Source: Candidatus Micrarchaeota archaeon (GTDB taxonomy: Archaea; Micrarchaeota; Micrarchaeia; Anstonellales; Bilamarchaeaceae). From it: a DNA stretch of 64,000 nucleotides. The stretch's first letter is position 1. The number at the start of each line of letters is the position of its first letter. The notes beneath the pieces were generated by a model. The model worked only from the letters and a program-made list of their open reading frames with translations. It had not been told where the DNA came from and searched no databases. Position numbers and translations under genes: made by a program. The stretch spans positions 53,557 through 117,556 of the forward strand of contig JBDRPL010000005.1 in assembly GCA_043827025.1 (NCBI GenBank), given 5' to 3'. Of the stretch, positions 47,268 to 58,169 are shown one piece after another.

Positions 47268-49364
47268 ATGGCCATATCAAAAGTAAGAAAGAGAGACGGA
47301 AGCATAGTAGAATTTGATAACGAAAAGATAGAAAATGCCATCTTCAAGGCTGCGCAATCAGTAGGCGGATCTAATAAAGACGAGGCAAAAAAAATAACTG
47401 ACAAAGTCATCGAACTACTCCATGATAAATATAAAGACGAATATGTGCCATCAGTTGAAGAAATACAAGACCTGGTTGAAAAAGGACTCATAGAAACAGG
47501 CCATGCACAAACTGCAAAGGCATACATACTATACAGGCACAAAAAGAACGTCGAAAGAGAAGTCAAAAGAATGCTTGGAGTCAAGGACGATTTGAAACTG
47601 TCATTGAACTCAATCCAAGTCCTTGAAAAGAGATATCTGCTTAAAGATGATAAAGGAAAGCCTATTGAAAGCCCAAGCCAGATGTTCAGAAGAGTTGCAA
47701 AACATATTGCAAGCGGGGAAGCCAAATTCGGTGCTGACCCTGAAACTGTAAAATATTATGAAGATGCATTCTACGAGATAATGACGAATTTTGAGTTCCT
47801 GCCGAACTCGCCTACATTGATGAATGCAGGCTGCAACATAGGCCAATTGTCTGCATGTTTCATACTTCCAATCCCAGACGACATAGAGGGGATATTCGAA
47901 ACAGTCAAATACTCCGCCATAATCCACAAAAGCGGAGGTGGTACAGGATATGCCTTTTCATATCTCAGGCCAAGGGGAGACTTCGTGAAATCAACTTCAG
48001 GAGTTGCTTCAGGCCCACTGTCATTCATGAGCGCTTTTGATAATGCAACAAATGTAGTCAAACAAGGAGGAAAAAGAAGGGGCGCAAATATGGGAGTCAT
48101 GCATGTGTGGCACCCTGACATAGAAGAATTCATAACTGCAAAGCAAACCAAAGGAGTTCTCGAAAATTTTAATGTAAGCGTTGCAGTAGACGACAAATTC
48201 ATGAAGGCTGTTGAAGAAGATGGGGATTATGACTTAATAAATCCAAGAAACAAAGAACCTGTGAGGAAGGTCAAGGCAAGAAGCATATTCAAGCTCATAG
48301 CCTACAGCGCATGGAAATCTGCAGAGCCAGGATTGTTGTTTATAGATACGATAAACAATACCAATCCTACTCCAAAATATGTTATAAATGCTACAAATCC
48401 ATGTGGCGAGGTACCTATGCCTGATTTTGAGTCATGCAACCTAGGAAGCATAAATCTTTCCAAATTCGTAGAGCATGACTGGAGCAAGACAAGCTGGAAA
48501 AAGAAGGTGAATTGGTCAAGATTAAGATATGTTGTTAGGCTTGGGGCTCAGTTCCTAGATAATGTAGTTGAATTGAACAAATATCCAATTGCCCAGATAA
48601 AAGAGATGACTCATAAGCACAGGCGATTAGGCCTTGGAGTCATGGGCTTTGCAAAGATGCTTACAAAAATGGGATTAAGGTATGATTCGGAAGAGACATA
48701 TGGAATTGCAGCAGAACTCATGAATTTCGTTACAAGCGAGGCAAGGAAGATGTCTCATGAAATGGGTCGAGTACGCGGTTCATTCCCTGGATTCCAGGAC
48801 AGCACCTGGGCAAACAAATACGATGCCATGAGGAATGCAACAGTGACTTCAATCGCACCAACAGGGACCATATCCATGATAGGGGATACAAGCAGTGGGA
48901 TTGAACCGAACTTTGCTCTTGTTTATATCAAAAATGTGATGGATGGCACAAAACTATATTATTCGGATGATATATTCGAACATTTACTGAAAGTCAGTGG
49001 ATTGTATTCTCAAGAGTTAATGCAGGAAATCATTGACAACAATGGTTCAATCCAAAACCTTGAGGGGATTCCGAAAGAGATACAAAATGTATTTGTAGTT
49101 GCCCACGACCTGAACACAGATGCGCATGTGAAGATGCAGGCAGCATTCCAAAAACATACGGATCTTGCTGTGAGCAAAACAATCAACATGCCAGCAGAAG
49201 CAACAGTTGATGATGTTGAAAAGGCTTACATACTTGCATGGAAATTAGGCTGTAAAGGTTTAACAGTCTACAGGGATGGAAGTAGAGGGCTTGGAGTCTT
49301 ATATACGGACAAAAAAGCAAAACAAGAGGAAAAAAGAGAGGTAAGCGAAGCGATTACACATTAA
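47268..49364 (+). CDS. nrdJ: Class II (AdoCbl-dependent) ribonucleotide reductase with ATP cone
   Basis: ATP cone VRKRDG, PNSPTLMNAG, SACF, TNPCGE, CNLGS, IAPTGT, SKTIN, VYRDGSR; adjacent pduO. Confidence 0.93.
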   Translation: MAISKVRKRDGSIVEFDNEKIENAIFKAAQSVGGSNKDEAKKITDKVIELLHDKYKDEYVPSVEEIQDLVEKGLIETGHAQTAKAYILYRHKKNVEREVKRMLGVKDDLKLSLNSIQVLEKRYLLKDDKGKPIESPSQMFRRVAKHIASGEAKFGADPETVKYYEDAFYEIMTNFEFLPNSPTLMNAGCNIGQLSACFILPIPDDIEGIFETVKYSAIIHKSGGGTGYAFSYLRPRGDFVKSTSGVASGPLSFMSAFDNATNVVKQGGKRRGANMGVMHVWHPDIEEFITAKQTKGVLENFNVSVAVDDKFMKAVEEDGDYDLINPRNKEPVRKVKARSIFKLIAYSAWKSAEPGLLFIDTINNTNPTPKYVINATNPCGEVPMPDFESCNLGSINLSKFVEHDWSKTSWKKKVNWSRLRYVVRLGAQFLDNVVELNKYPIAQIKEMTHKHRRLGLGVMGFAKMLTKMGLRYDSEETYGIAAELMNFVTSEARKMSHEMGRVRGSFPGFQDSTWANKYDAMRNATVTSIAPTGTISMIGDTSSGIEPNFALVYIKNVMDGTKLYYSDDIFEHLLKVSGLYSQELMQEIIDNNGSIQNLEGIPKEIQNVFVVAHDLNTDAHVKMQAAFQKHTDLAVSKTINMPAEATVDDVEKAYILAWKLGCKGLTVYRDGSRGLGVLYTDKKAKQEEKREVSEAITH

Positions 49365-50082
49365 TAGTTTCACAGAATCCCTTTACTTTTTCCAATCCTC
49401 CCTCTTTATAGAGCGTGATTAGTTTGCTTCCGATTATGAAGCCGTCAGCTCCTGCAATCTTAAGCTGTTGAACTTGATTCTTGTTTGAAATTCCAAACCC
49501 AACCACTAACGGAACTTTGGAATAACGCTTTGTGATTCGCATCGTTTCGGCAAACTCAGCTGGAAGCTCTTTTCTCTCTCCGGTAACCCCTAAAGTCGAG
49601 ACAAGATAAACAAGGCCCGTTGCCTTACTGCAGATTTGTTTGATTCGTTCTTCATCTGAATTCGGAGCAATCATCAAAACAAGGTCAACTCCATATCGTT
49701 TACTCATAGCCATAACAGGTTCTGATTCTTCCAAAGGAAGGTCTGGAAAAAGAACTCTGCTTGCACCTGATTTTTTTATCTCAATTAGGAAAGCTTCAAG
49801 CCCAATGCTAAACGCAGTGTTGTAATAGGCCATAACAGTGATTGGAACCGCAATTGCAATATCCTTTATCTGTTTAATCAATTTGAATGCCCTTTCCCCT
49901 GTCATCCCGTTTTTTAATGCAACTTGACTTGCTTTCTGAATTGTTGAGCCATCTGCAATCGAATCTGAGAAAGGAATGCCTAATTCAATTTCATTTGCTC
50001 CACTCTCAATCAGCATTTTGGCAATGTCAAATGTTTTTTCTTCGTCAGGATAACCAAGGCATAGATAAGGCATGAACTTCAT
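49354..50082 (-). CDS. trpA: Tryptophan synthase alpha subunit
   Basis: ELGIPFSD.IADG.TIQ, YYN, PDLP.EE, GVTG, VGFGI, ADG.IIGS. Confidence 0.95.
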   Translation of the reverse strand: MKFMPYLCLGYPDEEKTFDIAKMLIESGANEIELGIPFSDSIADGSTIQKASQVALKNGMTGERAFKLIKQIKDIAIAVPITVMAYYNTAFSIGLEAFLIEIKKSGASRVLFPDLPLEESEPVMAMSKRYGVDLVLMIAPNSDEERIKQICSKATGLVYLVSTLGVTGERKELPAEFAETMRITKRYSKVPLVVGFGISNKNQVQQLKIAGADGFIIGSKLITLYKEGGLEKVKGFCETINV

Positions 50083-50115
50083 AACTCTAATTTGACAAAA
50101 AGCAGATTTAAAGCA

Positions 50116-50601
50116 TCAATGTACCTTTTTAGACATTTCTTTTGTTGCATACTCAAGTATGGAAAACAAGGCCGTCGTATTATTTCTGAAAATAGGTGTA
50201 TTTGCATCATAATTCGCCTTTGTCTTTGCATACGTAACAATTGAAAGAATTGTTATTCCCCCTAAAAAGACTGCAAACAGATCGTGGCCTCCAATAAACA
50301 GCAACCCAAGGGATGACCCTCCTAGTATTAAGACAGAAAATTTCATTACTCTAAAAAAACTTGAAACAGAATTTTTCCTTTTCACTCCAAAATGAACTAC
50401 TTCCTGTTTTGCGATTTCGACCATCTCCTTGCAGAGTTTTGAAAGGATCCTATTGACTTTCTTTTGATTAAGAAGTTTGTTCTCGGATTTGTAAATAGTA
50501 AAATCAATAAAATCAGCTATGTTCTTCTGGGTTTCTTCAAGACCCATGACAATTGCAAGGTGTTTTGCTTCCTGCAAGCTTCTGACAGCATCAACAGACA
50601 T
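50116..50601 (-). CDS. Hypothetical membrane protein
   Basis: Two TM helices; start placed at ATG 50601. Confidence 0.55.
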   Translation of the reverse strand: MSVDAVRSLQEAKHLAIVMGLEETQKNIADFIDFTIYKSENKLLNQKKVNRILSKLCKEMVEIAKQEVVHFGVKRKNSVSSFFRVMKFSVLILGGSSLGLLFIGGHDLFAVFLGGITILSIVTYAKTKANYDANTPIFRNNTTALFSILEYATKEMSKKVH

Positions 50602-50702
50602 CCTAAGAACCTCTAACGAATTTGAATATTCCAATCTGGTCGAATTATTAAGATATAGAAAATAAGATTTATAAATTAGGGGTGAAGATGATTGACACCC
50701 AA

Positions 50703-51623
50703 TCATTGCTCAATTATTGTTTCATCCTTAACCAAAGTGCCGAAATGCCTTCCTCCTTGTTGGAAACGACCAAGAATTTTGTCGCCTACCTTTAGTTCTG
50801 TTACTGCCTTGCTTCCGCTCTTTGTCACCAATCGAATGGTTTCTGCGTTCTGCAGGATAAGATTTGCTTCATAACCTGCCTGGTTCTTGGCCTTTACTAA
50901 TATCAAAGGCCTTACCTCTATCTTGTTACGGCCCACAACTGCAATTTCTGTATCCCCATTCCTGCTTACAAGCATCACTTCCTTGCCTGTTTTTACTTCT
51001 TCGATGTAGGCGGTTTTTTCATTTGGAGCCAATGAATACATTGAAACTCCACCTGCATTTACTCTAAAAGGCCTTGGAGCTGCCAATTCATTTTTCATCA
51101 CTTCAGCCTGGACCAAGAGCATTCCGGATGCTGAAGAACCAATTAACATACCTTGGCCTTCTTTCATCATTGTGCATGTGTCAACGCATGACCTTGCACC
51201 AGTGCCAAGAGGAATTATTGCAATCACTTCTGCTTCTTCAAGATCGAGTTTGTCTGATTTTTGCTTTGTAAGTTCAAGGCATTTCTGCAATTCTTTGGAG
51301 TCGTCAGTTTCGAGCAGGACTCCATCCGCCCCCATTTCCATTGTCTGCAGGGCGAGTTTCGCTTCCTTTGCATCCCTTACCAGTGCAATAAGCTCGGTTT
51401 TGCCTTTGCATTTTGCAATCAAATTTTCGAGGGGAATGATCTTCCAGTCCTTGCAATTAACGAATATTCGCTTGGAACTAGACGCAAGCTTTACAGCTTT
51501 ATCTTCGTCAGCTTTTGTTTCTATTGAAACCAAAGGCTCAGGCTTTGAAACGATTTCAAGCTGAAACAGCTTTGCTTCTTTTCGAACATCTTCATCATTC
51601 GTCTTTACAAGGATTTTTTTCAT
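50703..51623 (-). CDS. 3-dehydroquinate synthase II (AroB')
   Basis: DWKIIPLENLIA, RSCVDTC, RPFRVNAG, GRNKIE.RPL, LQNAETIRL, GRHFG. Confidence 0.96.
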   Translation of the reverse strand: MKKILVKTNDEDVRKEAKLFQLEIVSKPEPLVSIETKADEDKAVKLASSSKRIFVNCKDWKIIPLENLIAKCKGKTELIALVRDAKEAKLALQTMEMGADGVLLETDDSKELQKCLELTKQKSDKLDLEEAEVIAIIPLGTGARSCVDTCTMMKEGQGMLIGSSASGMLLVQAEVMKNELAAPRPFRVNAGGVSMYSLAPNEKTAYIEEVKTGKEVMLVSRNGDTEIAVVGRNKIEVRPLILVKAKNQAGYEANLILQNAETIRLVTKSGSKAVTELKVGDKILGRFQQGGRHFGTLVKDETIIEQ

Positions 51624-51627
51624 AATA

Positions 51628-52368
51628 TCATCTCTCGATTATCCAAACCATGTGTTCGGCCATACTTTTTAATTTTTCATTTTTGAATCCACCATAAACT
51701 AGATACTTGCTAAATCCAGCAAGTTTTAACAGTAGTTCAAACTCTTTTTTATAGATGTATGAAAGATTTATTCTCAGTTTTTTAATCGGTTTTCCTTCTT
51801 CCTTTAATATCCTTTGACTTCTTATCAGTTGGTCAATCGGATAATATTTGACATATTCCGAAACTTGAACTCTTTTTCCCGTTTTCGGATTAATATAGTC
51901 TGAATGTTTTACTCTTGTTGTTTTTCCATTCTTTTTTGCCATGTAATAGAAATTCGGGTAAAAGATGTTGAGGATCAGCCTGCCTCCCGGCGCAAGATGC
52001 CCCCGTATATTCCTAAGAGTCTGGATTTGCTCGTCTTGTTTTTCAACATGCAGGAAAGAATTGTACGGAATGATTATCAAATCGAATTTCTTATTAATGC
52101 GAAAATTACGCATGTCTCCAAGTATGGTTTTCGATTTAAGTCCTTCTTTTCTTGCTTTTTCATTTAATTTGGAAAGCATTTTACCTGAATTATCCAATCC
52201 GACGATTGAAACACCTGATTTTGCAATTGGAATGAGGATTCTGCCTGTTCCACAACAAAGCTCCAGGACATTCTTTGCTTTTCTGGCATGTTTCAGGTAA
52301 AAATTCAAATCCCCAGGAGCGCCCTTCAAAGAAACATCGTAAACTTCTGCAAAATGGTCGTAAAGCAT
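51628..52368 (-). CDS. Class I SAM-dependent methyltransferase
   Basis: VLELCCGTGR, GDMRNF, FDLIIIPYNSF, HLAPGG. Confidence 0.92.
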   Translation of the reverse strand: MLYDHFAEVYDVSLKGAPGDLNFYLKHARKAKNVLELCCGTGRILIPIAKSGVSIVGLDNSGKMLSKLNEKARKEGLKSKTILGDMRNFRINKKFDLIIIPYNSFLHVEKQDEQIQTLRNIRGHLAPGGRLILNIFYPNFYYMAKKNGKTTRVKHSDYINPKTGKRVQVSEYVKYYPIDQLIRSQRILKEEGKPIKKLRINLSYIYKKEFELLLKLAGFSKYLVYGGFKNEKLKSMAEHMVWIIER

Positions 52369-52372
52369 ATTA

Positions 52373-53155
52373 TCACTTCAACAATTTCATCGCATCCTCA
52401 ACACTTGCATTATTCACAATAATAGACCTTAAAGCTGACACCATCCTGATTCTGTTTGCATGTTGGAATGCATTTCTTCCTAATGAAATGCCAATTGAAC
52501 CTGCATCCATTGCCCCTCTAACCATTTCCAAAACATCCTTGTCAGTCTTGCATTTTGATCCGCCTGCGATTACCACAGGAACAGGACAGCCACGCACGAC
52601 TTCCTTGAATGAATCAGAGTCGCCAGTGTAATTGCATTTGACAAGGTCTGCACCCAATTCGGCTCCAACTCGCGTAACCAGCTTGATTGCTTCGACATCG
52701 AAACTGTTCTTTACATTGTCGCCTCTTGCGTATGTCATTGCAAGCAAAGGCATATTCGCTTTGTCGCAGTCAGAAGCCATCTTTCCCAAGTCCTGGAGCA
52801 TTTCAGGCTCGTATTCTGAACCCCCGATATTTACGTGGATGGACATCGCATTTGCTCCCAAACGAAGCGCATCCTCAACTGAAGCTATGATTACTTTTCG
52901 TTTGGTGTCTCGTTCAAGGTCGGTTCCAGCAGATGCATGCAATATTACGCCGCATTTTGGTCTTGATTTGAGGGATTTGATTATTCCCTTGTGCAATAGA
53001 ACGGCAGATGCTCCGCCTAAGGATATGTCTTCAACTGCCTTGTTCATGTCAATCAGGCCATCAATAGGGCCGCATGAAACTCCATGATCCATCGGGATTA
53101 TAACTGCCTTTCCATTCTCCAATATTTTCGAAAGATCTTTCTTTACGCCAACCAT
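52373..53155 (-). CDS. DhnA-family aldolase, most likely ADH synthase (AroA')
   Basis: PMDHG, HKG, HVNIG, YARG, ELGADLVKCNY, IAGG, GRNAFQ; lies between asd and DHQ synthase II. Confidence 0.9.
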   Translation of the reverse strand: MVGVKKDLSKILENGKAVIIPMDHGVSCGPIDGLIDMNKAVEDISLGGASAVLLHKGIIKSLKSRPKCGVILHASAGTDLERDTKRKVIIASVEDALRLGANAMSIHVNIGGSEYEPEMLQDLGKMASDCDKANMPLLAMTYARGDNVKNSFDVEAIKLVTRVGAELGADLVKCNYTGDSDSFKEVVRGCPVPVVIAGGSKCKTDKDVLEMVRGAMDAGSIGISLGRNAFQHANRIRMVSALRSIIVNNASVEDAMKLLK

Positions 53156-53160
53156 AAATT

Positions 53161-54213
53161 TCACCTCAAAAGCTCTGCGAGCTTGTTTGTCTTTACCAAG
53201 TATTCGGCATCTAAAATTGATGCGCCAGCTGCCCCTCTTACCGTATTATGGCTTACTAAAGTATAAGCAATTGATTTTTCATCAATTCCCTGTCGAATTC
53301 GTCCAACAGTGACTGCCATTCCCTTGCCATTATCTCTATCAAGCCTTGGTTGTGGACGATCATCTTCATCCCGAACAATGATTACTGGATCAGGTGCGCT
53401 TGGAAGCTTTAACTTTTGTGGAATGCCCTTAAAGTTTCGCATTGCATTCTTTACCTCGTCAACGCTCACCGTTCTGTCGAATCGAACATGAACTGACTCA
53501 GTATGGCCATCTATCACCTGAACTCGATTGCATGTTGCAAAAACTTCTAGATTCGGAAGCCCAAGTATTTTTTTGGTTTCTTTCACTACCTTTTCCTCTT
53601 CACCACCAATGAATGGAATTACATTCTCAGTTATCAAAAGCGAAGGAACACCTGGGTAGCCTGCACCTGAAATGGCTTGCATGGAAACCATCTGCACTTC
53701 CTTCAAGCCAAGTGCTACAAGTGGCTTGAGAGTTAAGGCTAATCCTGTTGTCGTGCAGTTCGGATCAGTGATAATGCATCCTTTCAGCTTACGATTTGCC
53801 TTTTGTTTCGGAATCAGCTGATCCAAAGACTCGGGATTCACTTCGGGAATCAAAATAGGCACATCCGCCTCGTAGCGATTGGTCTTTGCCTTACTGATGA
53901 CAATTTTGCCCTGCTTTGCCAATTTCACCTCAACTGTTTCAGCTACTTCCGGAGGCAATGCTGAAAAGCATATCTGCGACTTTATCTCAGAATCCACGTT
54001 CTTGATCTTCATGTTCTTCAAGTACTGTGGAATCTCTGAACTGACAACCCATTTTGTAGCTTCGCCAATAGTCTTGCCAGCGCTGTTTTCCGAAGCACAT
54101 ATTTCTGCTACGTTGAACATTGGATGGTTCTCTAATAGTTGTAAGAACTTCTGCCCAACTGCGCCAGTTGCACCTAATACTGCGACATCAATTTTTCCAG
54201 CATCATTTTTCAT
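53161..54213 (-). CDS. asd: Aspartate-semialdehyde dehydrogenase
   Basis: [41 protein letters not shown]. Confidence 0.97.
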
Positions 54214-55456
54214 AGTCATCACCAAGCAACTCTTTCTCGATAAGCTTCTTTGCATTATGTTCGTCTCCGAATAATACGATCAGAAATATCTGAGACATAA
54301 CTGTGTATTGTCCATAGATGTTTATTCCATTGGCCCTCAATATGGAGGCAACACGTGATATCGAACCAGGTGTTTCCTGAAGCCCAATCCCGTTTATTCG
54401 CAATACTGAAAGCCCAGTTCTTCTTGCAATTGCCAATGTCTCTTTGTTCGCAACAACAATATTGTGGAGTTCTGCTACTGCCCTCTCGACACCTCCTTGA
54501 TCCAGGTACATTACCAAGCTTCCCTGATCTGCACTCATTCCGTATAATGGAACATTAAGTTTATGCAAAACTCCAAGAATCTGAGACATTACCCCTGGAT
54601 TTTCAGTTATGCCATTCCCGACTATTGTGATCGAGCCTGCTTCCTTCTTTGAAATTATGTCTACTTCTATATCAAGAACTCCGCCAGTTATCATTGTTCC
54701 TGACTCATCAAGGCTGTTGCTTGTATTGTTGATTATTTTGACGTCAATATCCTTTGGCTTGTAGCCCAATGCCTTCTTATGCATAAATTTAACTCCTGAA
54801 TCTGCCAAACCAACCAATTGGCTTACATCTATCCTTTCGATCTTTTTTGGATTCTTCACTACCTTCGGATCAGCTGACATTATTCCTGAAACATCGCTTA
54901 CTAAAATGACATCTCGGATGTTGAGCGCATCCGCTACAACGTAAGTGGTTGCATCGCTTCCTCCTCTTCCGATTGTTGTCACATGTCCATCTGTCGAACG
55001 TCCGATAAAACCAGGAATCACCAGAACATCAAGGTTTTCCATCTTCCTTGATACTGAATTCGCCAGCCTCTCCTTTGTGAGTTCCAGGACAATGTTTGCG
55101 CTTCCATGGCTTGCGTCGGTTATGATTGGCCAATCTTCATCATCCACATCAAGAAAGTCTGAATTAATTCCAAATGAAGCTAAGGCCACGTTAAAGACAC
55201 GGCAGCTTGTCCTCTCGCCCATTGCAAGTACTTCGTCCATCTGCTTTGGAGTTGCTTTTGAGGCGCTTCCGTTTGCCAGCTTTACAAGCTCATCTGTTGT
55301 CTTGCCAATTGCAGATATTATGACTATTATTTTCTTTCCATCCTTTGCCTTGTCTGCAACCAGCTTTGCAGCATGTGAAATCTTATCACTGTCTGCAATC
55401 GAGCTGCCTCCGAATTTGACCACCATCATCTGGTCATTGAATGGTACATTGGCCAT
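54203..55456 (-). CDS. lysC: Aspartate kinase (start may be 55429 or 55426)
   Basis: VVKFGGSS, SAIGKTTD, GER, GRGGSD, DVSGI.SADP, two ACT domains. Confidence 0.95.
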   Translation of the reverse strand: MANVPFNDQMMVVKFGGSSIADSDKISHAAKLVADKAKDGKKIIVIISAIGKTTDELVKLANGSASKATPKQMDEVLAMGERTSCRVFNVALASFGINSDFLDVDDEDWPIITDASHGSANIVLELTKERLANSVSRKMENLDVLVIPGFIGRSTDGHVTTIGRGGSDATTYVVADALNIRDVILVSDVSGIMSADPKVVKNPKKIERIDVSQLVGLADSGVKFMHKKALGYKPKDIDVKIINNTSNSLDESGTMITGGVLDIEVDIISKKEAGSITIVGNGITENPGVMSQILGVLHKLNVPLYGMSADQGSLVMYLDQGGVERAVAELHNIVVANKETLAIARRTGLSVLRINGIGLQETPGSISRVASILRANGINIYGQYTVMSQIFLIVLFGDEHNAKKLIEKELLGDDYEK

Positions 55457-55496
55457 ACCGTAAATCCCTTCCCGTTCCTCTTTCCTTACCTTCCAT
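55434..55496 (-). other. Short out-of-frame uORF (MEGKERGTGRDLRYGQCTIQ) behind a strong SD
   Basis: GAGGTGA-N5-ATG; its TGA lies 4 nt before lysC ATG 55429. Confidence 0.4.
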
Positions 55497-55543
55497 ATAT
55501 TTCACCTCATATTTTCAAACCTATCACTGATTCTAAACATGTC

Positions 55544-55595
55544 AAGAAAGCCAACAAAAATTCATTAGAGATTTCTTCATTAGTGTTGGCTTTTT
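55544..55595 (-). terminator. Attenuator-like stem-loop followed by U-rich sequence
   Basis: 10-bp perfect stem AAAGCCAACA (55593-55584) / UGUUGGCUUU (55556-55547), 27-nt loop, then CUU. Confidence 0.55.
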
Positions 55596-55664
55596 TCAAA
55601 ACCAAAAGTAATAGCTAAAGCTGAATCCATAGAAGAAGTTCTTTGATTTGGGTTCAGCATTCAT
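55596..55664 (-). CDS. Putative aromatic amino acid leader peptide MNAEPKSKNFFYGFSFSYYFWF
   Basis: Hand translation; 6 Phe, 3 Tyr, 1 Trp in the last 13 codons; lies between the TATA box and the aromatic-precursor operon. Confidence 0.75.
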   Translation of the reverse strand: MNAEPKSKNFFYGFSFSYYFWF

Positions 55665-55697
55665 TTCCAACACTTGTAATTATTTGAAGGGGAAATG

Positions 55698-55706
55698 TTT
55701 TTAAAT
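55698..55706. promoter_or_regulatory. TATA element, possibly bidirectional
   Basis: TTTTTAAAT: ~34 nt upstream of leader ATG 55664 (-) and ~23 nt upstream of ATG 55729 (+). Confidence 0.55.
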
Positions 55707-55728
55707 GGTTGATGTACGTTTTCAATTC

Positions 55729-55995
55729 ATGGCTTCAATTGCAGAACTCGAAAAACGAATCGGGAAAATCGAGGAAAGAAACAAACGAGTCGAACTCGAC
55801 AAGAAATGGGAAACGAGTTATGTAAGGCGAGGCCTGCTTGTGCTGTTCACATATCTCTCAGTTGGAATCTATTTCCAGTTCATAGGAATAAAGGATGCCT
55901 GGCTCAATGCAATTGTTCCTGCTGTTGCCTTCTTGTTATCCACATTAACATTGCCTTTCTTCAAGGGAGTTTGGGCGAAGCACATCAAAGAATAA
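55729..55995 (+). CDS. Small hypothetical membrane protein
   Basis: IEERN.RVE.DK.WETS..RR, two TM helices, LSTLTLPF. Confidence 0.8.
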   Translation: MASIAELEKRIGKIEERNKRVELDKKWETSYVRRGLLVLFTYLSVGIYFQFIGIKDAWLNAIVPAVAFLLSTLTLPFFKGVWAKHIKE

Positions 55996-56006
55996 CATCC
56001 TCTAAT

Positions 56007-58169
56007 TCAAATTTTCGCCCATCTCAATGTCAATGCACTGGCCACAACTGAAACACTTGAAAATGCCATTGCCCCTCCTGCAATCATTGGAGATAGTAGC
56101 ACGCCATAGGACGAATAAAGTATTCCTGCTGCAATGGGAATTCCGATTATGTTATAAATAAGCGCCCAGAACATGTTCTGTTTTATCTTGTTGATGGTGG
56201 CACGTCCAAGCCTTATTGACCTGACAACATCCATAGGATCGCTTTTCATCAGTACAACTGAACTTGTTTCCATTGCCACGTCCGTACCGCTTCCTATTGC
56301 AATGCCTATGTCTGCCTGCGCAAGTGCTGGTGCATCATTTATGCCATCTCCAACCATTGCCACTTTCTTCCCCTCTCCTTGCAATTGCTTGACGTAATTC
56401 GCCTTGTCCTTAGGCAACACCTCTGCAAATACGTGGGTAATACCTGCTGTTTTTGCAATTGCTTCAGCAGTTCGCTTATTATCACCAGTAATCAGCCAAG
56501 GTTCAATGCCAAGACTCCTAAGTTCTTTTATTGCTTCAACACTTGTTGGCCTCAAAGTATCTGCAACACCGAACAGCGCAGCCACTTTGGAATTTATGCG
56601 AAGAATCATCACTGTTTTACCTTCGCTCTGAAGTTTTGATATTGATTTGGAAATGATTTTTCCTTCCTTCCCATCCGGCTTGCCAACATAAACATGTGCC
56701 TTTCCAACCCTTCCCCCTACTCCATGCCCAGGAATGGCCTTGAAGTTCATGACTTTTGCTAGCTTAGCCTTGTTTGACTTTGCATAATCAACTATTGCAT
56801 CTGCAAGAGGATGCTCTGAATTCTTTTCAACTGCCAGGGCAAAACCAAGCGCCTGCTCTTTTTTCACATTGCCAAGCAAGAGAAAATCAGTTACCTTTGG
56901 ATTTCCTTCAGTTATGGTCCCAGTCTTATCAAAGATTATTGCATTTGTCTTGTGCATTGTTTCAAGGGCTTCTGCATTCTTGATCAATATTCCTCGCTGT
57001 GCACCCATTCCTGTCCCAACCATTATTGCCGTGGGAGTTGCAAGTCCCAAAGCACATGGACAAGCAATTACCAATACTGAAACTGCAATCATCAATGCAA
57101 ATGAAAATGACTGGCCAAACGCAAAATACCAAACTGCAGATGACAGCAATGCAATCACTATAACTACTGGCACAAAAACGGCGCTTATTGAATCTGCGAA
57201 TCGCTGTATTGCTGCTTTGCTACCTTGCGCATCCTCTACCAATTTAACAATCTGTGCTAGGACAGTATCCTTGCCTACCTTAGTGGCCTTGAAATTGAAG
57301 GAGCCGTGTTTATTGATAGAACCACCTATCACCTTAGAACCTTTATTTTTCTCCACTGGAATACTTTCTCCAGTTATCATACTTTCGTCAACTGAAGAAC
57401 TGCCCTCAACAACAACTCCATCAACTGGGATCTTCGTGCCTGGCTTGACAATCAAGACATCTCCCACTACAACCCCATATATTGGAATCTCGATCTCGCT
57501 GTTATTTCTTATTACAATTGCAATCTTAGGTGCAAGCCCCATGAGCTTCCTTATTGCATCTGAAGTCCTGCCTTTTGCAAGTGCCTCAAGATATTTGCCA
57601 AGGAGCACCAAAGTGATAAGAACTGCTGAAGTCTCGAAATACTGCTCTTCTGCAAAGCCAAGCATTGCAGCAACGCTGAAGAAATAGGCTGCGCTTGTAC
57701 CTACAGCTATGAGCGTGTCCATACTTGCCGTACGGTTTCTAAGCGAACTCCATGCCCCAAAATAGAACCCTCGCCCTGCAATGAACTGCACGGGAGTTGC
57801 AAGAACAAAAAGTACAAGCATCCGGTATGGAAAATCCATCATGAACATTCCTATTACTAATGCAGGCACTGCAAACAATGCACTGAACACCAATAGTTTC
57901 TTGAGGTCAGAGATTTCCTTCTGCCGCACCAATTTTTCCTGCTCTTTGTCAACACCTATGTTCGCAGTGTATCCTTTTGATCGAATCACTTCCACGAGTA
58001 TTTCATCCTTTGTCTGCTTGTCATCGAATTCCACAACTGCCTTTGCTGCAGCATAATTGACATTTGCAGATTTTACTCCCTGAGTTTTCTGAAGCGCTCG
58101 TGTAATCAGAGCAGAACAGGATGCGCAATGCATCCCGCCTATTGAAAATTCTGTTCTTTTTGTTGACAT
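56007..58169 (-). CDS. copA: Cu(+)-exporting P1B-type ATPase
   Basis: GMHCASC, TGES, CPC, DKTGT, SEHP, GDGINDAP, YN and MxxSS. Confidence 0.96.
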   Translation of the reverse strand: MSTKRTEFSIGGMHCASCSALITRALQKTQGVKSANVNYAAAKAVVEFDDKQTKDEILVEVIRSKGYTANIGVDKEQEKLVRQKEISDLKKLLVFSALFAVPALVIGMFMMDFPYRMLVLFVLATPVQFIAGRGFYFGAWSSLRNRTASMDTLIAVGTSAAYFFSVAAMLGFAEEQYFETSAVLITLVLLGKYLEALAKGRTSDAIRKLMGLAPKIAIVIRNNSEIEIPIYGVVVGDVLIVKPGTKIPVDGVVVEGSSSVDESMITGESIPVEKNKGSKVIGGSINKHGSFNFKATKVGKDTVLAQIVKLVEDAQGSKAAIQRFADSISAVFVPVVIVIALLSSAVWYFAFGQSFSFALMIAVSVLVIACPCALGLATPTAIMVGTGMGAQRGILIKNAEALETMHKTNAIIFDKTGTITEGNPKVTDFLLLGNVKKEQALGFALAVEKNSEHPLADAIVDYAKSNKAKLAKVMNFKAIPGHGVGGRVGKAHVYVGKPDGKEGKIISKSISKLQSEGKTVMILRINSKVAALFGVADTLRPTSVEAIKELRSLGIEPWLITGDNKRTAEAIAKTAGITHVFAEVLPKDKANYVKQLQGEGKKVAMVGDGINDAPALAQADIGIAIGSGTDVAMETSSVVLMKSDPMDVVRSIRLGRATINKIKQNMFWALIYNIIGIPIAAGILYSSYGVLLSPMIAGGAMAFSSVSVVASALTLRWAKI

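Follow-up and report, generated by a model that had tools for sequence, protein, structure and literature searches.

A candidate ribosome-sensing leader with Phe, Tyr and Trp codons and a hairpin at its stop codon, ahead of the lysC-led aromatic-precursor operon of a micrarchaeal genome

The stretch of DNA analyzed here, which we call the window, comprises 64,000 nucleotides (nt) of contig JBDRPL010000005.1 from a Candidatus Micrarchaeota archaeon (GenBank assembly GCA_043827025.1, positions 53,557 to 117,556 of the forward strand). On the minus strand of the window lies an operon that begins with lysC, the gene for an aspartate kinase (AK), and in front of lysC stand a TATA-like box, a short upstream open reading frame (uORF) rich in codons for aromatic amino acids, and a hairpin that begins next to the stop codon of this uORF (Table 1). 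The initial annotation had placed the uORF between the TATA-like box and a gene order of lysC, asd, ADH synthase (ADH: 2-amino-3,7-dideoxy-D-threo-hept-6-ulosonate), a methyltransferase and dehydroquinate (DHQ) synthase II, and according to the gene annotation both the placement and the names of the genes are correct. The host genome (1.325 Mb in 36 contigs, 40.6% G+C, 91.6% complete) is archaeal, with two repeats of the TATA-binding protein and an archaeal small-subunit rRNA.

The uORF consists of 22 codons and a TGA stop codon (ATG 55664..55662, TGA 55598..55596). Direct translation reproduced what had been read from the letters alone, a minus-strand frame at 55664-55596 with ten aromatic codons among its last 13. 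Six of the ten encode Phe, three Tyr and one Trp, and the run reaches the stop codon; the peptide contains no Thr residue. The same frame is listed as 55596..55673 when it is opened at an upstream GTG. In related leaders, an A/T-rich box of the TTTATA/TTTAAA type (TTTTATAT) is found by eye about 35-50 nt 5' of the uORF ATG.

Table 1. Features of the leader region and operon in the window, and leader peptides of related sequences. Peptides are given up to the stop codon; SD, Shine-Dalgarno sequence; SAM, S-adenosylmethionine.
Feature	Position	Strand	Sequence or remark
TATA-like box	55698..55705	minus	TTTAAAAA; 41 nt 5' of the uORF ATG
Leader uORF	55596..55664	minus	MNAEPKSKNFFYGFSFSYYFWF; homologues in G011, G096, G417, G180, L034 and 72 of 80 metagenome loci
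Aromatic codon tail	55599..55637	minus	10 of 13 codons F, Y or W; ends at the stop codon
Hairpin	55547..55593	minus	begins 2 nt after the uORF stop; 3' arm followed by CTTG
Hairpin arms	55593..55584 (5'), 55556..55547 (3')	minus	5' AAAGCCAACA; 3' TGTTGGCTTT
T5 run	55556..55560	minus	at the junction of loop and 3' arm
SD-like GAGGTGA	55502..55508	minus	conserved in the window's clade
uORF2	55434..55496	minus	20 codons, MEGKERGTGRDLRYGQCTIQ; ATG at 55496, overlaps the lysC start, +1 frame
lysC (aspartate kinase)	54203..55456	minus	first operon gene; TIGR00657, 234.3 bits (cut-off 208.7)
Rest of operon	49354..54255	minus	asd, ADH synthase, SAM methyltransferase, DHQ synthase II, 196-aa unknown, trpA
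Leader of G011			MCWPMNGSLNQITKAFRFFFGFSFGYFYSWF; tail FRFFFGFSFGYFYSWF
Leader of G096			MMTLAKEFGGYLPFWFFSFSYGH; tail FWFFSFSYGH
Leader of G417			MRNAKVCISGNSFFFSFSYY; tail NSFFFSFSYY
Leader of G180			MLNLPNIAWRFFYTWFSCSYC; tail WRFFYTWFSCSYC
Leader of L034 (metagenome contig)			MNKLNQNVSNFFYGFSFSFWFY; tail NFFYGFSFSFWFY

Conservation of this arrangement is the strongest argument that it is more than an accident of sequence. Orthologues of this lysC are rare: among 99 genomes of the family 4 have one, and a sample of 401 genomes from the phylum yielded 5. All six phylum genomes that encode such a gene have the aromatic uORF at the same place. The contig of one of them (G001) ends 131 nt before lysC, and its uORF was counted via the metagenome contig L034, whose sequence overlaps those bases. 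Window and G011 leader differ by synonymous changes, by swaps between F and Y, and by one in-frame indel of a single codon. Beyond the phylum, an alignment of four lysC proteins was used to scan metagenome contigs and gave 80 loci with 37-69% identity, and a locus was scored as positive if a frame just 5' of lysC had at least 7 aromatic codons in 13. By this measure, 72 of the 80 loci carry the uORF, whereas the antisense strand of these regions scores positive in 9 of 80. The comparative check that the initial annotation had proposed, a search for aromatic uORFs with synonymous variation in orthologous leaders, thus came out in its favor both in the phylum (6/6) and among the metagenome loci (72/80).

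Weaker homologous uORFs were found at five further metagenome loci. Below the threshold are L102, with six aromatic codons, and four members of a G+C-richer clade (L067, L070, L090 and L096), where the uORFs end in SMFQYY, FYLMFHYY, GGLFFRTY and FYSMFHYY, respectively. In L085 the sequence breaks off within the uORF, in L106 only 42 nt are available 5' of the lysC match, and L069 has no aromatic uORF. In the G+C-richer clade, to which L075 also belongs, the uORF has about 30 codons and a shorter aromatic tail; two of its members (L070 and L096) have no hairpin, and their uORF stops 8-20 nt before the SD of lysC, which is a different coupling geometry. A lysC scan of genome contigs returned only four distant relatives (25-33% identity), none of which has an aromatic uORF.

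Taken over all loci, there are 61 distinct leader peptides of 22-31 codons (median 24). Their last 14 codons contain 5-10 aromatic residues (median 8, about 56%), whereas proteins encoded by neighboring long ORFs are 4.3% aromatic (2.4% F, 1.4% Y, 0.5% W). In 58 of the 61, the last aromatic codon is no more than one codon away from the stop. The order of the aromatic residues varies while their count is kept, as in the endings RYFFKYYYYY, MFYGYRYFFYR, FYSFGYFFYN, NFFYGFSFSYYFWF and FYSFEYSFYYYFN. Phe and Tyr occur in every one of the 61 peptides, with a mean of 3.7 each, and Trp in 29. The earlier proposal that a single leader senses all three aromatic amino acids therefore stands for Phe and Tyr, but extends to Trp in fewer than half of the leaders. 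In the window's clade, Trp genes accompany the operon and the leaders tend to carry Trp codons; trpA (49354-50082, minus strand) is the last operon gene in the window, and in L036 a PALP-family enzyme, possibly trpB, and trpA lie just 5' of the leader (302-2226).

Substitutions within the frame were assessed with a Nei-Gojobori-type count of nonsynonymous over synonymous changes (pN/pS). In four length groups, the in-frame ratios were 0.42, 0.69, 0.44 and 0.16, compared to 0.59-2.55 in the other frames, and in three of the four groups the uORF frame had the lowest ratio of the three frames. The amino-terminal half has a character of its own: in most leaders outside the window's clade it contains 21% T, 19% S and 12% N (for example MEKYLTTTTTNSMMM at the amino terminus), compared to 6.4%, 6.8% and 4.5% in neighboring proteins, and 13 of the 61 leaders have at least four Thr within eight codons. 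By their codons, leaders rich in Thr, Ser and Asn may also sense threonine or methionine.

The aromatic composition itself is less exceptional than it first appeared. The initial annotation had estimated a chance probability of 1e-7 to 1e-8 per window of 13 codons, which is too low. When all six frames of the 1.325 Mb genome were scanned, 6 of 1,532,403 stop-free 13-codon windows reached 10 aromatic codons; they belong to three loci, and the frequency is about 4e-6 per window. As three loci of one genome reach this density, composition alone is weak evidence. The other two loci (G000:C5 at about 44148 and about 25437; L116 and L117) are both compositional artefacts, one being the antisense of the gene for ribosomal protein S11 and one a T-rich spacer, without start codon, between the S7 gene and an adenosine deaminase gene. 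Among ATG-started intergenic short ORFs of 9-40 codons in front of 1,216 crudely called genes, the uORF before lysC is the top aromatic hit, and the same scan found no comparable codon run before any other biosynthetic gene. What goes beyond chance is the combination of an ATG-started frame in leader position, its composition and its conservation, and it is on conservation, not on composition, that we reject a chance origin of the uORF.

The second conserved element is the hairpin. In the window, its predicted minimum free energy (MFE) is -12.8 to -13.5 kcal/mol, which corresponds to z = -3.3 relative to shuffled sequences; across the leaders, the median z is also -3.3, and 53 of 57 lie below -2. 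The form is the same in all clades: a long stem with a large A/U-rich loop, placed directly 3' of the stop codon. For 55 of 56 distinct leaders, the first paired base is at -3 to +2 nt relative to where the stop codon ends; in 46 of the 56 the stem takes in bases of the stop codon itself. Stem sequences differ wholly between clades and yet stay complementary, for example GCCCAG/CTGGGC together with AGCT/AGCT, GCCAACA/TGTTGGC, GGCTGAAACGG/CCGTTTTAGCC, GAAATCAC/GTGGTTTC and AAACCACAA/TTGTTGGTTT. By eye, runs of T5-T8 occur in the loop or the 3' half of the hairpin in seven of eight leaders of the window's clade.

Covariation was counted in an alignment of 53 rows over a structure of 12 pairs written by hand. 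Rows were trimmed to their own MFE hairpin, and about ten rows from two clades are misaligned and were counted as broken. With these caveats, 94.7% of the paired cells are complementary, compared to 90.8% in shuffles, a value that none of 500 shuffles reached. Compensatory changes on both sides are found in 7 of the 12 pairs (reached by 5 of 500 shuffles) and in 18 cells (0 of 500), and when the partner is shifted by one column, pairing falls to 40-73%. A covariance model hit both strands of this symmetric hairpin, and the alignment from that model was not used. Rfam searches returned no leader family, neither for window positions 54000-57000 at E values up to 10 nor for seven related loci at E values up to 1. 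In 43 of the 53 rows, an unpaired TT of the 3' arm is 93-98% conserved, whereas the loop bases opposite on the 5' side are 47-63% conserved. The difference is a hint that the 3' arm has a role besides pairing.

The operon behind the leader fits the codons within it. The gene set of the archaeal route through 6-deoxy-5-ketofructose 1-phosphate (DKFP) and ADH, with AK, aspartate-semialdehyde dehydrogenase (ASD), ADH synthase and DHQ synthase II adjacent to each other, is present in the window, and lysC is the only match to an aspartate kinase in the host genome. Genes for dihydrodipicolinate synthase (DHDPS, dapA) and homoserine dehydrogenase (hom) were not found in this genome, which is 91.6% complete, and a chorismate synthase was. 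Given the single AK, the lack of hits to DHDPS and hom, and the chorismate synthase, the aromatic (ADH) route is apparently the only one that AK and ASD supply in this host; this would fit a leader that has aromatic codons and no Thr. The pathway logic of the initial annotation, in which the operon feeds the trunk leading to the aromatic amino acids, thus holds in a sharper form. The chorismate synthase (G000:C27:6400-7422, L120) lies within an open frame of 791 aa and may be a fusion protein.

The same operon type follows the leader elsewhere. Six loci other than the window were annotated 3' of the leader, and all six have an operon led by lysC. The set of lysC, asd, an ADH-synthase-type aldolase and DHQ synthase II is complete in four of them (L083, L050, L036 and L070); L041 lacks asd, L066 lacks the ADH synthase between asd and DHQ synthase II, and both continue to a dehydroquinase. 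In L056, the leader is directly preceded (2-2254) by genes for a prephenate dehydratase and for a second aspartate kinase, the latter with ACT domains, which suggests that the kinase under control of the leader is the isozyme of the aromatic route. For two operon genes of the window, the best match is far below the cut-off. The best match of the 196-aa protein is BasF, with 21.3 bits far under the cut-off of 1300, and the best NCBIfam match of the SAM-dependent methyltransferase encoded between ADH synthase and DHQ synthase II (51628-52368, minus strand) is likewise far below its cut-off; none of the other six annotated loci has a gene at this position.

The distance between leader and lysC differs between clades. 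In the larger clades, lysC starts 50-69 nt after the stop codon of the leader, and the stem ends 3-5 nt before an SD of the form GGAGG or GGGGG. The window's clade differs by another stem sequence, by a long spacer of 79-192 nt from leader to lysC, and by a second small ORF before lysC. Counterparts of this uORF2, consisting of an SD and an out-of-frame ATG and spanning 16-23 codons, are present in G096, L035, L036 and G417, and the lysC start is in the +1 frame relative to uORF2 in all five sequences (at distances of 10, 25, 25, 22 and 40 nt). The ATG or GTG of lysC in four relatives follows GGAAAGGG without spacing. In the window, the residues EGIY, conserved at the amino terminus of lysC in relatives, are encoded 5' of ATG 55456 (55457-55500, minus strand), and no ATG, GTG or TTG precedes EGIY in the window's lysC frame. 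ATG 55456 is thus a tentative start of lysC, and by comparison with G096, L035 and L036, about 20 nt seem to have been lost in the window.

On the other side of the leader, the promoter region is common with a divergent small ORF on the plus strand (55705/55729..55995, 88-96 aa). By eye, its product has a charged amino-terminal part and a hydrophobic carboxyterminal part, and ORF 55705-55995 matched neither Pfam nor NCBIfam. A gene for a CopA-type ATPase ends at 56007.

Together, these data suggest a model in which the uORF and the hairpin form a ribosome-sensing leader for Phe and Tyr, and in part of the leaders also Trp, to which we assign a probability of about 0.7. The uORF would be a translated leader at the 5' end of the transcript of an operon that makes aspartate semialdehyde and, via ADH, dehydroquinate, and it would report the supply of charged Phe-tRNA, Tyr-tRNA and, in the window, Trp-tRNA. 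Under a shortage of aromatic amino acids, ribosomes would linger on the 8-10 aromatic codons that make up the leader's last third, and under ample supply they would run on to the stop codon. The stop codon directly borders the base of the hairpin, and most relatives have it built into the stem, so that the position of the ribosome would decide whether the hairpin folds or melts, and the state of the hairpin would set the expression of lysC and the genes behind it. Translation of the uORF, a transcript shared with lysC, the response to starvation and the direction in which the hairpin acts are what we infer in this model. Its robust statement is a design with one hairpin, in which the position of the ribosome at the end of the leader would decide about helix folding, and the effect could run in either direction and act at either level, termination or initiation.

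For the direction, two variants can be considered. Tentatively, and at somewhat less than even odds, the folded hairpin may be permissive and would hide a 3' arm, rich in U and in pyrimidines, which in the unfolded state would pair with the ribosome-binding region or act as a U-tract in termination. In favor of this variant are the conserved unpaired TT of the 3' arm and a predicted drop in SD accessibility from 0.61 to 0.25 when the 5' arm is blocked, with a decrease of more than 0.2 in 44 of 59 leaders and an increase in one. In the other variant, for which the odds are clearly below even, the folded hairpin would be repressive, and a ribosome that stalls on the final codons would melt it. 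Other couplings take up the remaining probability.

A more specific version of the permissive variant draws on archaeal termination. In Methanococcus, passages of PMC8716108 report that termination efficiency follows the number of U4-tracts and that aCPSF1 binds these. A hairpin whose folding state conceals or releases a U-rich arm might engage this machinery. One might accordingly picture an archaeal one-hairpin attenuator, in which a ribosome at the stop codon frees the U-rich 3' arm for U-tract termination of the aCPSF1/FttA type or for use as an anti-SD, while a starved ribosome keeps the arm hidden and the operon on. Such an element would be spread over several archaeal phyla, and would have travelled with the operon for AK, ASD, ADH synthase and DHQ synthase II into a small-genome lineage where AK and ASD serve only the aromatic route. 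This picture as a whole is speculative, and we consider it more doubtful than not.

Several observations weigh against the sensing model or parts of it. The initial annotation had called the element an attenuator, a label that stays conjectural: a single covarying hairpin was found, and mutually exclusive antiterminator and terminator structures were not supported. A stem between the last codons and the 5' arm (1:2) looked convincing in the window (TTGGTTTT/AAAGCCAA), L034, G011 and G096, but after a shuffle control it equals what codon-shuffled tails form (median z of -0.04, 0 of 59 below -2). Masking of the SD by the tail of the uORF was likewise rejected: pairing of the aromatic codons with the SD is predicted for some leaders, but no consistent switch appeared (mean SD accessibility of 0.37 in the free leader, 0.38 with a ribosome at the stop codon and 0.40 with a stalled ribosome). 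Specific masking of the SD by the freed 3' arm did not hold up either, since composition-matched shuffled arms behave alike (0.24 versus 0.26), indicating that the masking comes from a pyrimidine-rich arm beside a purine-rich SD, and not from the order of the bases. RNAalifold predicted no pairs on a MAFFT alignment of all clades, a null result explained by the mixing of clades in that alignment. The U-run after the stem is variable between leaders: a stem followed by T5-T6 is found in L034, L036, L037, L038, L060 and L066, TTCAT or TTCTT follows in most leaders, and TTTCTTG in the window. A scan with the terminator consensus found nothing at the site of the hairpin in the window. Passages of PMC8716108 on U4-tracts and aCPSF1 make no mention of a hairpin, though the word occurs five times in that paper.

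The search for RNA and the breadth of the conservation also call for caution. No RNA run matched window positions 54900-55760, and in two metatranscriptome runs from one study no contig covered 55300-55760; DNA contigs of two other runs are identical to the window. In one of the length groups, another frame had a lower pN/pS than the uORF frame (0.59 versus 0.69), and the pairs behind these ratios are related and not independent, which makes this a weak test. The metagenome loci are presumably archaeal, judging by the form of the promoter, an L15e gene beside L070 and an Atlas lead whose nearest clusters are 66-96% Archaea, with Nitrososphaerota and Bathyarchaeota as the commonest; a Pfam search of 25 flanking ORFs of the metagenome contigs yielded no domain-specific marker. 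Finally, TATA-like sequences are present in the spacer between leader and lysC, AAAATAT at about 55516-55510 in the window and TATATAAAA in L034, so that lysC could have a promoter of its own.

A first alternative is that the uORF is translated and conserved, but does not sense amino acids. It could couple or dampen expression constitutively, or encode a peptide with a function of its own. The conserved frame and length, a pN/pS below 1 and the recurrence of the motif GFSF or FYSF[GS]Y would all be expected for such an ORF, and the fact that no alternative RNA structure could be shown speaks in the same direction. It would not explain, however, why the count of F and Y is kept across clades when their order is not and the amino-terminal half varies freely, or why the uORF is tied in all six annotated loci to a lysC-led operon with DHQ synthase II, that is, to the genes that build these very amino acids. 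A functional peptide would moreover be expected at other places too. On this balance, we regard a non-sensing uORF as improbable.

The TATA-like sequences of the spacer lead to a second alternative, in which leader and hairpin are a separate short transcript or a non-coding element close to the promoter, lysC is transcribed from a promoter between 55546 and 55457, and the aromatic frame is a by-product of T-richness. T-rich spacers can indeed yield aromatic frames by chance, and in L034 and L036 the hairpin with its flanking T-runs resembles a terminator; the TATA-like sequences are found between hairpin and lysC in the window's clade. In the larger clades, however, hairpin and SD together occupy the gap of 50-69 nt, and a lysC promoter would not fit in. 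Nor would a by-product be expected to keep, in 61 distinct leaders, an intact frame, a constant spacing of its ATG and a stop codon next to the base of the hairpin, or to have the lowest pN/pS of the three frames in three of four groups. These findings make a separate unit quite improbable. A frameshift switch, in which starvation makes ribosomes change frame within an overlapping short ORF and so enter the lysC frame, could draw on the GAGGTGA and ATG that open an ORF of 16-23 codons overlapping lysC in the +1 frame (5/5 sequences) and on the EGIY encoded without any start codon in the window, but it is very improbable, given that lysC starts with an ATG or GTG in its own frame in the four relatives, that no slippery site was identified, and that the larger clades keep the aromatic leader without having uORF2.

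If the sensing model is true, feedback of the ribosome on gene expression in cis in archaea, and the step at which it acts, termination or initiation, become directly testable, thanks to an element that is built simply, from one uORF and one hairpin, is conserved over dozens of lineages, and is associated with one pathway. The leader would also mark the aspartate kinase of the operon as the isozyme of the aromatic route, which matters for the metabolic reconstruction of uncultured archaea. The window places the element in a small-genome archaeal lineage. That uORFs act in archaea is stated in general terms in a passage of PMC10219788. A full-text literature search found no amino-acid-sensing leader peptide in an archaeon, but most subscription journals were outside its coverage, so that absence is unproven.

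Attenuation by leader peptides is a textbook mechanism of bacteria that requires coupling of transcription and translation. The enterobacterial leaders pheL-pheA, pheM-pheST, trpL, hisL and thrL are transcription attenuators of this kind, and Rfam holds such families. The leader described here shares with pheL, trpL, hisL and thrL a short ORF at the 5' end of an operon, with codons for end products of the pathway running almost to the stop codon, and with pheL-type leaders a stop codon that abuts an RNA helix, such that the position of the ribosome would control folding. It differs from pheL-type leaders by its archaeal host, by the lack of an Rfam match and by the variable U-run, by one conserved hairpin in place of their 1:2, 2:3 and 3:4 set, and by its association with the archaeal trunk of AK, ASD, ADH synthase and DHQ synthase II, where Phe and Tyr, often together with Trp, would be read jointly.

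Two other systems offer partial parallels. In the translational attenuation of ermC, as described in passages of PMC10219788, a ribosome arrested on the leader alters a hairpin and thereby the access to the ribosome-binding site of the next gene, and our larger clades resemble this geometry in that the hairpin ends 3-5 nt before the SD of lysC. Unlike in ermC, the stall would be caused by hungry codons and not by a drug, and the SD is not sequestered in the hairpin, but lies 3-5 nt past the stem in the larger clades and far from it in the window's clade, where 79-192 nt separate the hairpin from lysC. The mycobacterial polycysteine ORFs (bioRxiv 10.1101/834739), reported as cysteine-responsive attenuators, are short, lie near the 5' end of a polycistronic mRNA, are rich in codons for one amino acid and control the genes that follow, although they are bacterial, sense cysteine and are leaderless.

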